Assembly: GCA_902573085.1 (NCBI GenBank)
Contig: CACGHY010000002.1
Location: forward strand, 4,925 to 68,924
DNA: 64,000 nucleotides
Direction of reading: 5' to 3'
From: an uncultured Candidatus Poseidoniales archaeon
Lineage (GTDB): Archaea; Thermoplasmatota; Poseidoniia; Poseidoniales; Thalassarchaeaceae
The number at the start of each line of letters is the position of its first letter. The stretch's first letter is position 1. A program made the translations under genes and the position numbers. The notes under the pieces were generated by a model. It searched no databases and was not told where the DNA came from. It saw only the letters and a list, made by a program, of their open reading frames with translations. Positions 1 to 8,757 of this stretch are shown piece by piece.

Positions 1-41
1 ATGGCCTTCACGACACTCCAAGCCCTGCTGAATGCTGTCAT
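1..41 (-). CDS. FDxAW-leader family member, 5' end only (gene runs off the left edge)
   Basis: The reverse strand reads ATG(41..39) ACA GCA TTC AGC AGG GCT TGG AGT GTC GTG AAG GCC = MTAFSRAWSVVKA. It is absent from the ORF track because it is truncated. Confidence 0.5.
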   Translation of the reverse strand, partial: MTAFSRAWSVVKA

Positions 42-60
42 CCTAATCTCTTCCTTTTGC

Positions 61-546
61 CTAGTAATACTCCTCTGGATCGATAGCAGGTACGCCAGTA
101 GCCATAATATCGGGGCTTAAACGTAGTGCATTAATCACATCCAAGAGGAGCCTGTTGTGTTTGTCCGGGTCGATTCCTCTTTGTCTCGGATGTATTGGCT
201 CGTCCCCGGAACCATCTGATGCAAGATACTTTTCGTAATCTTCATCGTATCTTCCTTCATCCCTCAACATCCGTCTATTGTCATGATGAAAATAATTCAT
301 CAGAACCTTTTCAGCCGCATCCCTTTCATCAGCCATGCCCCTCATCGTATCTGCATTTATTCTATGAGTGTCCTGCATCATGGCTTCTCTGTATCTCATA
401 TCATCCAAAAACTCATTTAGATCCTTAGGGCCGGGAAGGTTTCCGCCAGTTCTCATTCTCCCTGAACGCGACATCACCCTATTGGGTTCGCCTCGGCTGT
501 CCATCGAGTATTTGGTCAAGTCCCAAGCGGAATCGAATGCTGTCAT
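61..546 (-). CDS. FDxAW-leader family protein (161 aa), C-terminal domain unknown
   Basis: Track ORF 61..642. The leader MTAFDSAWDLTKY starts at internal Met33 (ATG 546..544), one nt after the stop codon of the upstream gene (548..550). The rest is rich in charged residues with no recognised motif. Confidence 0.6.
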   Translation of the reverse strand: MTAFDSAWDLTKYSMDSRGEPNRVMSRSGRMRTGGNLPGPKDLNEFLDDMRYREAMMQDTHRINADTMRGMADERDAAEKVLMNYFHHDNRRMLRDEGRYDEDYEKYLASDGSGDEPIHPRQRGIDPDKHNRLLLDVINALRLSPDIMATGVPAIDPEEYY

Positions 547-547
547 A

Positions 548-772
548 TCAGACCCTCCCTCTGAGTCCGAAGTCCTTCGTCTGACCACCGGATTCCCTAT
601 ACCTTTGACAAGCCATGGATAACTCATTTCTATCCACGCCAACGAGTTCAGCGACTTGCCTCAAGGCTTGACTATAACGAAGGCCATGGGACTCCATAGC
701 CATGAATACGTCCTCGCAATACATGGATGCGTCTTCTTTCACGACTGACCAAGCCTTGTTGAATGCTGTCAT
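548..772 (-). CDS. FDxAW-leader family protein (74 aa)
   Basis: Leader MTAFNKAWSVVKED. There is a weak helix-turn-helix-like stretch, SQALRQVAELVGVDRNEL. Confidence 0.6.
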   Translation of the reverse strand: MTAFNKAWSVVKEDASMYCEDVFMAMESHGLRYSQALRQVAELVGVDRNELSMACQRYRESGGQTKDFGLRGRV

Positions 773-787
773 ACAAACTACCTTTCT

Positions 788-6850: not shown

Positions 6851-7479
6851 CCCAAATCACCCCTGACAGGCCAAATTCGCTGTGCATCCCAAGCACTAGG
6901 ACTCCAACTCACACGGTTTTCGGGAATTTCCTCGTCATCTCCCAAATCATCACTAAATCGAGAATTCCATAACGCCTTGGCGGCTCTTGACTGTTCAAAT
7001 GACTCCTTGAGTGGCGCACCCCCTTTCCTTTGTCTATCCAACAGGTAGGCGGCTAAGTCATACAATGCAGTAGCATACCCCCTTCTCTGAAAATTATCCA
7101 AAGTCGTCGTTCCTACTGAATACCAATGGTTTGGTTTATGCCGTTTTAATCCCATAGACGAAAAATCCGCATATGCCCTTTCATCCAGATGATCGAAATT
7201 CTCTCCTGCAAGGGAATCAGGCTCTTTGATAGAGACACTAAGCATATCTCCTTCGGCGGGTAGGCGATAACTCCCTCTCATGTCCAATTGCTCCCCTGTC
7301 TCAGGGTCATCGAACTTTGCAGAATACAGTTTTGCACGAGGCGCAGTTGCAAGGCCTTGGTCGATGCCAAATAGCGATTCCATCCTCTCATCCCTTTCCC
7401 TCTCTCTCCTGTAATCACGATAGACGGAACCGGGTACGATGGGCATCTTGACGACTTGCCACGCTTCGTCAAACACCAT
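6847..7479 (-). CDS. FDxAW-leader family protein (210 aa) with GNAT acetyltransferase-like domain
   Basis: Leader MVFDEAWQVVKMPIV. The C-terminal LDNFQRRGYATALYDLAAYLLDRQ...AAKALW resembles GNAT motif A (Q/R-x-x-G-x-G/A). Confidence 0.5.
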   Translation of the reverse strand: MVFDEAWQVVKMPIVPGSVYRDYRRERERDERMESLFGIDQGLATAPRAKLYSAKFDDPETGEQLDMRGSYRLPAEGDMLSVSIKEPDSLAGENFDHLDERAYADFSSMGLKRHKPNHWYSVGTTTLDNFQRRGYATALYDLAAYLLDRQRKGGAPLKESFEQSRAAKALWNSRFSDDLGDDEEIPENRVSWSPSAWDAQRIWPVRGDLG

Positions 7480-7481
7480 TA

Positions 7482-8012
7482 CTACCGCCTCCTATGCAAA
7501 AACACGGGAACTGGTGTGTCTGCAAAGCCCATTTGGCGCAATGCGTCCATCCTATGTCCTCCTTCCTGAAAATTTTCACTCTCAAACTCGTCGTTATCGC
7601 CGCTAACTTGTAATTCAGGCATACCTATGATTTTCCCTTCTTTTATGCCTTCAATTATTCTTTCTATCCTCTTCTTGTGAAAGGAATCATCATCCGAATG
7701 AGTCCATCTGAATTTTCTCCCTCTGGGGCCTAAAAAACGTGGCGGCGGCTCCGAAGGGTGTGCAGATGCAATTGAATCAAAATAGTCATCAGGAGTCATG
7801 TATTTGATGGCATCACGATTATTCCATGCATAGGGAATATTACCTATCGACGGATAAAGACCGGCGTCAAGAAAACGATCGCTCACAATCATGTCATCAA
7901 TCGCCTGTTGAGGCAATTTTACTGGTTCCAATGAGTCATATCCGAACCTTATGCCGGGTTGCGGCTCTAGGATAGGCATCTTGACGACTGCCCAAGCCTC
8001 TTCAAACGTCAT
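7482..8012 (-). CDS. FDxAW-leader family protein (176 aa) with ParB/sulfiredoxin-like domain
   Basis: Track ORF 7482..8063. The leader MTFEEAWAVVKMPIL starts at Met18 (ATG 8012..8010, ATGA overlap). The C-terminal GMPELQVSGDNDEF..QEGGHRMDALRQMGFADTPVPVFL parallels 1321..1869. Confidence 0.55.
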   Translation of the reverse strand: MTFEEAWAVVKMPILEPQPGIRFGYDSLEPVKLPQQAIDDMIVSDRFLDAGLYPSIGNIPYAWNNRDAIKYMTPDDYFDSIASAHPSEPPPRFLGPRGRKFRWTHSDDDSFHKKRIERIIEGIKEGKIIGMPELQVSGDNDEFESENFQEGGHRMDALRQMGFADTPVPVFLHRRR

Positions 8013-8731
8013 TGCAAGCCCTCCAAACCACCAAATCGGGGCGCGTTGCCCTTTTTCTCCCAATAAGAGGGCTTCAAACCGAAACGCAGGTCACTCGACG
8101 ACAGTTGGCTCAGGAGTTTCTTCCTCTGCTCCAAAGCGTGGTCGAACTCCTCATCCATATACTGATTGCGAGGAGATCGGGCTATCTGGTTTATTATCTC
8201 GCTCATGAGGTCCGCACGTTCCTCGTTGGCCGTGTAGTAGTCCTCCTCGCTCTGGATGGCCCTATCGACCTCATCCTGACTCAACTGGCGTATCAGGTGA
8301 GGGGGTATCACCTTGTTCGACCTGCGTTGGTCCTTGGGTTCGTTGAACGCCGGTTCGTCCGGTCGGATGCGTGGTTCTGGCATGAAGAAGGGCGAATCCG
8401 GGTGTCGGTCGTCTATCTCTAGCACCACCGGCCCCCCGCCCTCCTCCTCGTCGTCCACCCAATCCTTCGCGCTAGTGATTGCGGCTTGCTTGCCACCCAT
8501 GGTGCTAAGGCTCGGTTTTGCCTTGTCCCCATAGAAGAAGTTCCAATTTCCTCCGAAAATGTCCTCCATCTGTTGGTCATCGAAGCCAAGTGCCTCCTGT
8601 ATCTCCTCCATGTCAAAATCATACAACTGTGGGGCGTGATCTGTCGGCTTCAACCCCTCTTGCATGATTTTCTTGGCATTTTCGGCTGTTGTGCCATGGT
8701 AAACCGGCATTTTCACGACTTCCCAAGCCAT
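8009..8731 (-). CDS. FDxAW-leader family protein (240 aa) with PARP/Tpt1-like ART-fold candidate; first gene of the array
   Basis: Track ORF 8009..8872. MAWEVVKMPVYHGTTAENAKKIMQEGLKPT starts at ATG 8731. An upstream GTG at 8749 would give MGGAFSMAWEVVK, which aligns better with the leader. PVVLEIDD and KVIPPHLIRQL parallel 2656..3237. Confidence 0.5.
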   Translation of the reverse strand: MAWEVVKMPVYHGTTAENAKKIMQEGLKPTDHAPQLYDFDMEEIQEALGFDDQQMEDIFGGNWNFFYGDKAKPSLSTMGGKQAAITSAKDWVDDEEEGGGPVVLEIDDRHPDSPFFMPEPRIRPDEPAFNEPKDQRRSNKVIPPHLIRQLSQDEVDRAIQSEEDYYTANEERADLMSEIINQIARSPRNQYMDEEFDHALEQRKKLLSQLSSSDLRFGLKPSYWEKKGNAPRFGGLEGLQ

Positions 8732-8757
8732 GCTAAACGCTCCGCCCACGAATTTGG

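Follow-up and report, generated by a model that had tools for sequence, protein, structure and literature searches.

A shared N-terminal leader on unrelated proteins of magrovirus-like archaeal viruses, a candidate virion-targeting peptide

In bacteriophage T4, the proteins IPI, IPII, IPIII and Alt carry a capsid targeting sequence, or CTS (Mullaney & Black 1996; Repoila et al. 1994; reviewed in PMC3012670, PMC9026906). The T4 internal proteins are diverse anti-defence proteins that have only this N-terminal CTS of 10–19 residues in common, and the ADP-ribosyltransferase (ART) Alt is packaged (PMC3012670, PMC9026906, PMC5512222). Further described systems are the MuF-anchored effectors and polyvalent phage proteins (Iyer, Burroughs, Anand, de Souza & Aravind 2017, PMC5512222) and the Dar internal head proteins of phage P1 (PMC12810830).

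Here, we describe a leader peptide carried by consecutive genes in a 64,000-nucleotide stretch of DNA (the window), which belongs to a magrovirus-like tailed archaeal virus. As interpreted below, the system resembles T4 CTS and MuF delivery in kind, and we found no description of the leader family itself in the literature and databases searched.

The leader and the proteins that carry it

Sixteen consecutive minus-strand genes, between positions 1 and 8749, open with M-[TS]-[AP]-F-[DE]-x-A-W-x-[LIV]-[VLM]-K, as established by six-frame regex scans and the open reading frame (ORF) list (Table 1). This agrees with an earlier note made from the sequence, although the leader of the gene at 5591–6850 is decayed. 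A degenerate DNA form of the leader, TTYGANNNNGCNTGGN9AAR, has 13 matches in the window, against 0.00 expected (100 shuffles); they lie between 511 and 8006, each of them on the minus strand. Beyond the 16 array genes, the window holds one fused internal copy and a decayed 18th copy. The protein with the 18th copy is also conserved elsewhere, in 22 related loci, and in some of these its leader is intact. Of the 15 gene junctions in the array, 8 show the ATGA overlap that the earlier note had described.

Table 1. Positions of leader genes and associated features in the window; minus-strand genes start at their higher coordinate
Position	Strand	Feature	Basis
1..41	-	Leader gene 5' end, MTAFSRAWSVVKA..., cut by window edge	Regex scan
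61..546	-	Leader gene, 161 aa, MTAFDSAWDLTK...	ORF list, regex scan; without Pfam or PHROG match
548..772	-	Leader gene, 74 aa, MTAFNKAWSVVK...; single-cassette insertion relative to L097	ORF list, L097 comparison
788..991	-	Leader gene, 67 aa, MADAFDAAWSISK...	ORF list, regex scan
1034..1324	-	Leader gene, 96 aa, MTAFDQAWSLIK...	ORF list, regex scan
1321..1869	-	Leader gene, 182 aa; weak paralogue of 7482–8012 gene	E 4e-7; no Pfam match
1866..2681	-	Leader gene (start 2675/2681), 271 aa, MKMTLNSFDRAWDLMK-MPF..., body cluster 1	ORF list, clustering
2656..3237	-	Leader gene, 193 aa, predicted ART-fold body (YHGT...EGLKPT...ILEMP), body cluster 0	Tpt1 motif E 1e-3; AF2 pLDDT 77
3234..4025	-	Leader gene, 263 aa, body cluster 1; fold not recognised	Clustering, AF2 model
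4022..4687	-	Leader gene, 221 aa, MKAFDQAWDLLK...	ORF list; L097 has unrelated 165-aa body instead
4684..5370	-	Leader gene, 228 aa, MTAFDQAWDIVK...	ORF list, clustering
5367..5591	-	Leader gene, 74 aa, CxxC-rich, MTIFDKAWKIVK...; single-cassette insertion relative to L097	ORF list, L097 comparison
5591..6850	-	Leader gene, 419 aa, decayed leader MTTFEKAWYDNIDW, no K12; C-terminal part a fused second cassette	
5723..5758	-	Internal second leader SDSFDDAWSITK (SFDDAWSITK) in 419-aa ORF, then Zn ribbon	Regex scan
6847..7479	-	Leader gene, 210 aa, MVFDEAWQVVK-MPIVPGS..., body cluster 2	ORF list, clustering
7482..8012	-	Leader gene, 176 aa, MTFEEAWAVVK-MPI...	ORF list
8009..8749	-	First array gene, GTG start, 246 aa, (M)GGAFSMAWEVVK-MPVYHGT..., ART-like	
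8750..8800	-	Putative array promoter; TATA-like GATAAAG at 8770–8776, ~25 nt upstream of GTG	Sequence reading, inference
9752..16027	+	2091-aa polyvalent protein (ArdC-N + MPTase-PolyVal), divergent from array	Domain search
36645..36881	-	18th member, 78-aa protein, pI 12, decayed leader MFDVVWDSITK	Related loci compared

Column entropy across leaders is about zero at F4, A7, W8 and K12 with a search pattern that held A7, W8 and K12 fixed, and exceeds 3.3 bits from residue 13 on. Under free scoring these three positions are 94–95% conserved (A7 in 387/410, W8 in 387/407 and K12 in 385/404), while F4 is phenylalanine in 392 of 395 leaders in a search that let in six hydrophobic residues. The leader is strictly N-terminal, with six residues ahead of A-W in 325/395 cases. 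Position 5 is acidic in 91% of leaders, net leader charge is close to zero, and conservation ends at K12.

AF2 models of two leader proteins place residues 3–10/11 in a separate helix of low pLDDT. In the cluster-1 model (gene 3234–4025), the leader helix spans residues 3–11 and residues 10–26 are disordered (pLDDT <50). The hydrophobic moment falls in the top 2–5% of shuffles, and F4, A7, W8 and Φ10/11 share one helix face, which bears out the amphipathic helix proposed earlier. Six members do continue as K-M-P-[IVF], but K-M-P belongs to the bodies and not to the leader: M13-P14 is invariant within particular body families, and the first strand of the ART model comprises residues 15–20. The idea that M-P extends the leader or stops its helix is thus withdrawn.

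Synonymous codons vary at T2, A3, F4, D5, A7 and K12, as had been noted, and every synonymous codon is used. Leader codons nevertheless lie off the equilibrium of the bodies (ACC 62% versus 21%; GAC 74% versus 32%), and at A7 the codon GCC makes up 1% in leaders versus 21% in bodies, a scarcity that arises because CCWGG is avoided genome-wide (0 sites versus 161 expected). Where two leaders have the same residue, 55% of pairs within a locus also share the codon, against 46% of pairs from different loci. With residues near-fixed and codons differing even within a locus, selection acts at the peptide level, as the earlier note had argued.

The proteins behind the leader are unrelated, again as claimed: 389 bodies from about 100 loci form 173 BLAST clusters, a count that is a lower bound. 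Bodies are mostly small and acidic (median pI 4.9, 55% below pI 5), and 16% have at least two CxxC motifs. The acidic bodies contrast with the basic, classical DNA-associated internal proteins of T4, a point against the T4-like reading favoured below. Searches of Pfam, PHROGs and NCBIfam gave no family match for leader and bodies, with almost all bodies lacking a Pfam or PHROG match (Pfam matched only 8 of 150 body-cluster representatives), and literature searches returned no earlier description of the leader, so the view that it belongs to no described family holds. Taken whole, leader proteins are 19–525 aa long (median 150); for this reason, and from the folded domains in two AF2 models, RiPP precursor arrays were rejected, and domain searches saw no RiPP-type modifying enzymes in the arrays. 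Overall, the data support a modular, peptide-level tag on unrelated bodies.

The sole body cluster with a supported enzyme fold is the largest, cluster 0, whose window members include 2656–3237 and 8009–8749 and which is predicted to adopt an ART fold; the "diversified set of enzymes" of the earlier note was an overstatement. A profile match to Tpt1/KptA (E 1e-3) coincides exactly with the stretch YHGT..IMREGIKP, and two paralogues match RNA 2'-phosphotransferase in NCBIfam far below cut-off (E 2e-3 and 6e-3). Foldseek against the PDB returned mostly ART-fold proteins (toxins, KptA/Tpt1, PARP10, DarT, Arr) at E ≥0.018 and TM ~0.3, and the best match in BFVD, a set of predicted viral protein structures, had E 2.9e-4. 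Within the cluster, H17 and E118 do not vary and Y65 hardly does; the H-Y-E class of ARTs is marked by a first-strand motif [YF]-H-G-[TS]. A tblastn search with the ART-fold leader protein (2656–3237) against GenBank phages found nothing.

Among other bodies, the weak paralogues at 1321–1869 and 7482–8012 have an EG.HRM.A motif in common, and the former may be ParB-like. The Zn-ribbon module of the 419-aa ORF occurs elsewhere as a stand-alone leader gene, MEAFSKAWDFIKYSKLPHCPHCKG, and the 419-aa gene is therefore read as a fusion of two cassettes.

Distribution and cassette exchange

In the marine viral and metagenome loci fetched, 987 leader ORFs were found. The leader DNA pattern occurs in 96 stretches of viral contigs and at least 120 of marine metagenomes, with 0 matches in 185,579 cellular species genomes; the leader is restricted to viruses.

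The array runs past the left edge of the window, as anticipated, for about 1.4 kb in L097, a contig 93–98% identical. Between L097 and the window whole bodies are swapped, with leaders as the boundaries, and the extended leader of gene 1866–2681 heads an unrelated body in L097. Of 803 internal homology breakpoints, 38.6% lie in the interval from -10 to +50 nt around a leader start, where 4.5% are expected. Cassettes are thus exchanged with breakpoints on the leader.

The system is more than the one array first described: leader genes are also found within the head and tail modules, downstream of replication genes and next to the gene for the thermosome. Some follow the tail-tube gene and others sit among the capsid-to-tail-tube genes, at fixed positions. 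Big arrays lie outside the structural module, co-oriented with replication genes or convergent with the thermosome gene depending on the genome, and could therefore be expressed early, which counts against the virion-targeting reading favoured below. The polyvalent-protein gene (ArdC-N + MPTase-PolyVal) was not found beside arrays in the other loci compared.

The portal link and competing explanations

In 68 loci ascertained by portal protein alone, a leader gene starts within 450 nt of the portal stop in 33, mostly via an ATGA overlap. Portal adjacency covers a subset of leader genes, the big arrays being elsewhere. Pfam confirms portal, S78 protease and major capsid protein in related head modules. 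Sister lineages without a portal-adjacent leader gene have a portal about 100 aa longer, whose tail is homologous to the body of a stand-alone leader protein (E 2e-18, 1e-10, 2e-8), and the portal-fused forms of this body are without F-D-x-A-W. The next conserved gene, p120, begins 20–56 nt after almost all long portals (308 nt after one), while after short portals it is 300–2435 nt away and the gap is filled by one to four leader genes. This fusion argument concerns one body family; a second, weak case involves Zn ribbons (E 5e-4). In halovirus HVTV-2, the post-portal slot is occupied by a MuF-like gene together with a polyvalent gene of zeta-toxin/ART type, and in locus L251 by a MuF-like gene. 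The portal is 78–100% identical across the portal-bearing contigs compared, which makes it a conserved candidate receptor with an identity level that fits a near-invariant leader. Together, gene order and gene fusion suggest that the tag docks proteins at the capsid's DNA portal, and give independent genomic support to the T4-like capsid-targeting analogy drawn earlier.

The explanation we favour, with a probability somewhat better than even, is that the leader is a virion-targeting (procapsid- or portal-docking) peptide of archaeal viruses, a functional analogue of the T4 CTS and MuF-anchored effectors that is unrelated to them in sequence. Magroviruses would thereby tag a large, fast-exchanged accessory repertoire of putative ART-fold enzymes, Zn-ribbon, small acidic and very basic proteins. 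We infer physical docking, packaging, ejection and cleavage as follows. The leader would attach its proteins non-covalently within the head during assembly, the C-terminal crown of the portal or its vicinity being the likeliest site, and they would then be packaged and reach the host cell along with the DNA. Twelve portal sites would be few for 15–20 cargo species per genome, and the receptor could be other than the portal. In HK97, lysine stands at P1 of the cleavage site; here the HK97-type (S78) prohead protease may remove the leader by cutting behind the near-invariant K12. Docking would replace the covalent fusion of related viruses, whether to the portal C-terminus or in MuF/polyvalent proteins, and in the DNA, the 36 conserved nt that open each gene may also mark the cassette-swap point. 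The stronger version, in which 12 residues are enough for any protein to be loaded at the portal or procapsid and evolved as a non-covalent replacement of portal/MuF fusions, has a probability we place a little short of even. If correct, no larger repertoire of virion-delivered effectors than these hundreds of tagged bodies would be known, and the leader would be the first signal for protein delivery to be described in an archaeal virus, in a virus group that is marine and abundant.

It is unlikely, by comparison, that the leader is a cytoplasmic hub-docking motif through which one conserved non-virion partner folds, localises or time-limits the proteins, candidates being the virus-encoded or host thermosome, the viral archaeal-type replisome and the host proteasome/Cdc48. 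The peptide's anatomy would suit any groove-binding helix with hydrophobics at i, i+4 and i+7, in several genomes arrays lie downstream of replication genes and share their strand, and the small acidic bodies look like early host-takeover proteins. Arrays also adjoin the thermosome gene in 23 of 80 thermosome-ascertained loci, but in one lineage, always on the same side and convergent; 57 of the 80 have no leader gene within 10 kb, and a chaperonin gene is present in just 12 of the 26 magroviruses published (PMC5434244), which leaves the chaperonin tag once considered with lineage-specific synteny only. Since the leader was found in no cellular genome searched, it is not a mimic of a host motif. 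Hub docking also fails to explain the portal-adjacent leader gene and the body–portal fusion in sister lineages.

Less probable again is that the leader serves mainly as an evolutionary handle, its 36-nt gene start promoting homologous recombination and shuffling cassettes while the peptide would do something generic, for instance form a stable helix at the N-terminus or let translation restart efficiently in ATGA-coupled operons. The breakpoint excess near leader starts, the leader-bounded differences from L097, synonymous sites with a bias and a slight excess of similarity within a genome, and ATGA overlaps in 40% of neighbouring genes would all fit. However, any model that takes the bodies as the units of exchange predicts breakpoints at leaders, and genome-wide CCWGG avoidance accounts for part of the codon bias. 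A recombination site would keep DNA, not a Phe/Ala/Trp/Lys pattern, whereas the amino-acid positions are 94–100% fixed, synonymous sites retain most entropy and about 45% of identical residues differ in codon even within a locus; the loss of F-D-x-A-W on body–portal fusion is left unexplained. Very improbable is an in-plane membrane anchor that brings proteins to the host membrane: a short amphipathic helix with Phe and Trp is what it calls for, yet membrane-binding helices allow wide sequence variation and are usually basic, in contrast to the near-fixed A7, W8 and K12, an F4 at ~99%, the acidic position 5 and the near-zero net charge. The portal link would again go unexplained. As a whole, the interpretation in the earlier note is partly supported.

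Comparison with known delivery systems

Like encapsulin cargo-loading peptides, the leader would be a short peptide that docks diverse cargo within an HK97-fold shell. However, encapsulin peptides are usually C-terminal and of another consensus, and their shells are without portal, terminase and tail, whereas here the peptide is N-terminal and portal and S78 protease genes adjoin that of a viral capsid. An encapsulin cargo peptide was accordingly rejected, and the defining features of polymorphic toxins, the other analogy first drawn, are likewise lacking.

The T4 CTS is closer. Both are short N-terminal peptides (10–19 aa in T4, 12 aa here) common to otherwise unrelated, fast-evolving accessory proteins encoded in tandem at a variable locus, where whole bodies are exchanged behind the constant leader. 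Both rely on few specificity positions (residues 4 and 7 in T4; F4, A7 and W8 here), and in both a prohead protease is encoded in the same genomes. T4 Alt is an ART, and a candidate ART occurs among the leader proteins. Unlike the CTS, to which it has no sequence similarity or shared family (PHROGs, Pfam, NCBIfam), the leader belongs to viruses of Archaea with a halovirus/HK97-like head and S78 protease rather than the T4 gp21/gp22 core. Its repertoire is far larger, at no fewer than 173 body clusters in ~100 loci and 16–18 genes in this genome, its genes are spread over several genome sites, and it is the portal, not a scaffolding core, that the genomic evidence implicates. Packaging and cleavage were shown experimentally in T4 and are proposed here for the leader proteins.

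MuF-anchored and polyvalent proteins provide the other parallel. Domain searches detected no MuF domain in leader proteins, and one body family is portal-fused in sister lineages. In those proteins, diverse counter-defence or host-modifying domains, with ART among the hubs, are head-carried and thought to be injected with the DNA, as proposed here for the leader proteins. Their genes directly follow the portal gene, the place that leader genes take in the 33 loci above and that MuF-like and polyvalent genes take in the related HVTV-2, and the window itself has a polyvalent protein gene beside its array. In contrast to effectors that are covalently fused in a giant protein or to a MuF domain of ~250 aa, the putative leader effectors are separate small proteins that carry only a 12-aa tag.

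Leader genes of the array and beyond

Every minus-strand gene from the left edge of the window to position 8749 begins with M-[TS]-[AP]-F-[DE]-x-A-W-x-[LIV]-[VLM]-K, the 12-residue N-terminal leader. The ORF list and a six-frame motif scan both recover this array of 16 genes, which the earlier note had described. One gene is truncated at the window edge (start 41), and the gene starting at 8749 uses GTG. When F-[DE]-x-A-W-x3-K is searched as a degenerate DNA pattern, the window yields 13 matches, every one of them minus-strand and within 511-8006, while shuffles lead to an expectation of 0.00. 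The remaining 55 kb of the window carry no comparable leader, except for one decayed copy on a basic protein (see table). The ATGA overlaps noted previously are present at 8 of the 15 gene junctions of the array. A TATA-like GATAAAG precedes the first start codon by ~25 nt, suggesting that the array is transcribed as a single operon.

Two features were observed beside the start of the array. An in-frame C-D-K-A-W-F-F-S-K (8765-8791, minus strand), 14 codons upstream of the first leader, could be the leftover leader of a deleted cassette (a leader plus its body, the remainder of the protein) or could be due to chance. Between the array and the polyvalent-protein gene lies a GC-rich intergenic stretch (56%), with C-rich repeats of ~10-nt period on the plus strand (CCACCCGCAT, CCATCG), several inverted repeats, and a T13 run near 8950 (minus strand). 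This stretch could serve as an origin or in regulation. TGTCTA repeats occur near 9430-9470 on the minus strand.

Coordinates of features in the window
Feature	Positions	Strand
Cluster 1 bodies (two genes)	1866-2681; 3234-4025	-
Cluster 0 bodies, ART-like (two genes)	2656-3237; 8009-8749	-
Intergenic GC-rich stretch between array and polyvalent gene	8900-9360	
2091-aa ArdC-N + MPTase "polyvalent" protein, divergent from array	9752-16027	+
Thermosome-type chaperonin	17749-19464	+
PD-(D/E)XK nuclease	31207-32184	
ERCC4 nuclease	33673-34383	
78-aa basic protein with decayed leader	36645-36881	-
Two adjacent giant proteins (2717 and 2205 aa), tail module	38900-53664	-
Tail-tube protein	57457-59634	

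A scan of viral contigs, of the kind that the earlier note had proposed, located the leader DNA pattern in 96 stretches of IMG/VR, many with 2-7 exact matches. At least 120 stretches were found in marine metagenomes, and none in cellular genomes (185,579 bacterial and archaeal species, one genome each). The loci collected contain 987 leader ORFs, 807 of them unique; all leader copies lie on one strand in 78 of 81 multi-copy loci, and 40% of neighbouring leader genes overlap by ATGA. The leader therefore defines a large, virus-only family. In a local profile search, the 12-residue motif would by estimate score ~23 bits, which is below significance; a 40-column leader alignment used as a query returned only 6 candidates. 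The magrovirus papers searched do not mention an N-terminal motif or paralogous family, and a full-text search with the motif string gave no relevant match.

In an alignment of leaders anchored at A-W, column entropy is ~0 at F4, A7, W8, and K12, of which the last three were fixed by the search pattern behind the alignment, and is above 3.3 bits at residue 13 and beyond. Scored separately without forcing, A7 is conserved in 387 of 410 leaders, W8 in 387 of 407, and K12 in 385 of 404. The K-M-P-[IVF] continuation that had been counted as part of the leader belongs instead to the bodies, as M13-P14 is invariant within particular body families and residues 15-20 form the first strand of the ADP-ribosyltransferase (ART) model. 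F4, W8, and Φ11 are spaced at i, i+4, and i+7, with A7 and Φ10 completing one helical face, and the leader's hydrophobic moment falls in the top 2-5% of shuffles. AlphaFold2 (AF2) models of two members have a low-confidence helix at residues 3-10/11, and residues 10-26 are disordered in one of them. Together, these features are those expected of a short helix that docks into a groove on a protein.

Every synonymous codon is used at the fixed leader residues, with frequencies that differ from those of the bodies. Where residues are identical, codons agree in 55% of within-locus pairs compared with 46% of between-locus pairs. Consequently, selection on the leader is at the peptide level, with mild concerted evolution added, in agreement with the earlier claim that a peptide, and not a DNA or RNA element, is conserved. 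The scarcity of GCC at A7 arises because GCC at this position would create CCTGG, and the window lacks any CCWGG (0 sites versus 161 expected from shuffles). Other missing palindromes include AGCT (0 versus 147 expected) and GCWGC (0 versus ~57 expected), and many 6-mers are absent, including ACCGGT, ACTAGT, CCCGGG, and CCTAGG. CCWGG does occur in related loci, at 0.23 per kb, and the avoidance is therefore specific to the window's lineage. It probably reflects restriction systems of the host.

Diversity and exchange of bodies

The bodies are mostly unrelated behind their shared leader, as had been claimed: 389 of them form 173 BLAST clusters, including 112 singletons. Pfam matches were obtained for 8 of 150 cluster representatives (GP88, DUF6321, zinc fingers, HTH_38, and a GH-E nuclease), and the leader proteins of the window match nothing in Pfam or PHROGs. 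The 639 unique bodies have a median length of 154 aa and a median pI of 4.9, and 16% contain two or more CxxC motifs. The largest group, cluster 0, has an invariant H17 and E118 and a nearly invariant Y65. The match between its profile and archaeal Tpt1/KptA covers exactly the YHGT..IMREGIKP stretch (E 1e-3), and NCBIfam gives weak matches of the same kind. The AF2 model of an ART-like body (pLDDT 77) has weak, mostly ART-fold Foldseek matches in the PDB and a best match of E 2.9e-4 among predicted viral structures; overall, cluster 0 bodies look like ART folds. Cluster 1 also gave a good model (pLDDT 80), for which Foldseek found nothing significant (best match Tse6, E 1.9).

Several other assignments were discarded. 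ParB-like (1321-1869 and 7482-8012) and GNAT-like (6847-7479) guesses have no Pfam support, even at E 10. Among related marine loci, what we took to be DNA methyltransferase motifs were noted in L023, where the protein is cut at the locus end, and in L091, for whose protein the Pfam census gives no methylase family.

A Tara contig (L097) that is 93-98% identical to the window array differs from it by whole leader-bounded bodies. There are two single-gene insertions (548-772 and 5367-5591), one replaced body (4022-4687), and a two-gene block that corresponds to four other genes; in one case, the unusual leader MTLNSFDRAW is retained while the body behind it differs. The whole set of loci contains 803 internal homology breakpoints, whose endpoints are non-independent as many loci are related; 38.6% of them fall between -10 and +50 nt relative to a leader start, where 4.5% would be expected. 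Such leader-bounded cassette exchange has a parallel in the T-even phages, with their variable internal-protein locus (PMC3012670). Cassettes can also fuse. Gene 5591-6850 has a decayed leader of its own and a second, internal leader at 5723-5758. Another virus encodes the Zn-ribbon module behind the latter as a leader gene in its own right, so two cassettes have merged in this ORF.

Viral setting and the portal slot

Magroviruses are among the most abundant archaeal viruses of the surface ocean, most of their genes are orphans, and their hosts, the Marine Group II archaea, are uncultured. The gene content of the window is the profile published for these viruses (PMC5434244). Among GenBank phages, no match was found to an array protein, the array DNA, or the thermosome; only the tail tube matched, to the haloarchaeal siphoviruses HCTV-5 and HVTV-1/2. 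Homologues of a 1159-aa protein led only to tail-fibre regions and reached no head genes. The second giant gene has a Laminin_G_3 domain, and in three relatives (L014, L066, and L087), leader genes are inserted beside homologues of the giant genes. The polyvalent protein contains three copies (near 12971, 13469, and 14135) of a ~35-aa hydrophobic segment, G-A-[FM]-G-[LF]-[VI]-P-A-L-L-D-P-S-...-A-L-G-[AV]-A-M-V-x-G-[VT]-V followed by R or K. By sequence, these repeats resemble sorting signals or transmembrane helices between domains, and might mark where a polyprotein is cleaved or inserted into a membrane. The thermosome carries HDGTTS, and its relatives [YF]DGTT[ST], where GDGTT[TS] would presumably be expected; ~45 aa precede its first Met (TTG start), a stretch that is possibly untranslated.

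Outside the big arrays, leader genes are found after replication genes, beside the thermosome gene, and inside structural modules. Head genes were located by probing all loci collected with HVTV-2 head proteins, and many leader-ascertained loci proved to be head modules. Their order is portal, leader gene(s), p120 (a conserved 120-aa protein), three small genes, a ~1100-aa protein, S78 prohead protease, and capsid protein, with Pfam confirming the portal, protease, and capsid identities. Further leader genes follow the tail-tube gene or lie between the capsid and tail-tube genes. p120 always follows the portal/leader slot (L025:2672-3031, L047:10327-10671, and homologues) and may be a scaffold or head-completion protein; its start, MSDGFDILVKMNP, is faintly leader-like (F-D...L-V-K-M-x-P) but without A-W.

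As these head-module loci had been fetched by their leaders, 80 loci were chosen via the portal protein alone (portals 78-100% identical). In 33 of the 68 loci with enough downstream DNA, the start of a strict leader gene lies no more than 450 nt from the portal stop, most often at -3; these include one (L324) whose contig carries a thermosome 99% identical to that of the window. The remaining loci come mostly from a lineage in which the portal is ~100 aa longer. The C-terminal tail of this long portal is homologous to the body that the post-portal leader protein carries where it stands alone (E 2e-18, with 52% identity over 62 aa; further comparisons gave 1e-10 and 2e-8). When both forms are aligned together, only the stand-alone proteins have the leader, and the fused forms have the portal's Gly/Gln-rich linker in its place. 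Behind long portals, the distance to the p120 start is 20-56 nt in nearly every case and 308 nt in one; behind short portals, it is 300-2435 nt, and the gap holds 1-4 leader genes. A second case, involving zinc ribbons, is weak, with an alignment that begins at the K of portal PVQK and leader K12 (E 5e-4). In HVTV-2, the post-portal slot is occupied by two genes, one for a MuF-like protein and one for a zeta-toxin/ART polyvalent protein; L251 has a MuF-like protein there.

Portals are 78-100% identical across contigs (L310-L387) even though neighbouring accessory genes differ completely. Their C-terminal modules vary (none, basic tail, or Zn ribbon), each following a Gly/Gln/Pro-rich linker that ends in P-V-Q-K in tailed portals.

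Another family related to the leader genes lies at the end of the tail module. The basic protein of the window (pI 12; leader MFDVVWDSITK) belongs to a very basic family of ~80 aa shared with 22 related loci (GKFRGYS.NTI.GR..RQ....RK..R.T..Y.R.K.RG.VRPKMRRQ.G.). At the N-terminus, members vary between an intact leader (L022, L127) and a fully decayed one, and in L066 the protein is fused behind a Zn-ribbon leader protein.

Possible roles of the leader

Portal C-termini form a crown inside the capsid; the P1 portal provides an example (PMC12810830). The simplest reading of the split and fused genes is that the attachment given covalently by portal fusion would be given non-covalently by the leader. 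The leader may well be a capsid- or portal-targeting peptide, which is the best explanation of these arrangements. Our confidence goes no further because the fusion involves little more than a single body family, the large arrays are located away from the structural module, acidic bodies are in the majority, and the argument is drawn from genes. As a lead only, the S78 protease might cleave after K12. Φ-Φ-K had also been considered as a common protease site (leader, capsid N-terminus LLK-ADSP, protease C-terminus, and portal PVQK), and was set aside as this tripeptide is too common to be evidence.

The main rival, which we regard as improbable, is a cytoplasmic tag that docks proteins to a hub, such as the thermosome, the replisome, or a host factor. 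Leader genes lie beside the thermosome in one lineage (23 of 80 thermosome-ascertained loci); in other lineages, no GroEL was found beside arrays, and only thermosome-type genes occur among the loci examined. It is also unlikely that the leader, despite bounding the exchanged cassettes, is purely a recombination handle, because amino acids are conserved rather than DNA. The invariant small Ala beside Trp and the conserved acidic residue 5 speak against a generic membrane-binding helix; membrane-anchor, RiPP, and encapsulin readings were rejected on the defining features of each.

Whatever its role, the leader labels ~10-20 genes per genome, and overall hundreds of families, as one functional class, and provides a simple sequence rule for finding its members. 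If it is a virion-loading tag, it marks proteins sent into Marine Group II archaea, whose defences could then be approached via the cargo (ART-fold enzymes, nucleases, and Zn-ribbon proteins). It might also serve as a tool, since HK97-type capsids could be loaded with proteins by means of a minimal tag. The split and fused portal tail would be a natural experiment in which a docking peptide takes the place of a covalent link. T4-like ‘tag and pack’ logic would then have arisen independently in archaeal viruses. As a targeting peptide, the leader would work like the T4 capsid targeting sequence (PMC9026906) and like MuF-anchored effectors (PMC5512222), although it is a member of neither family.
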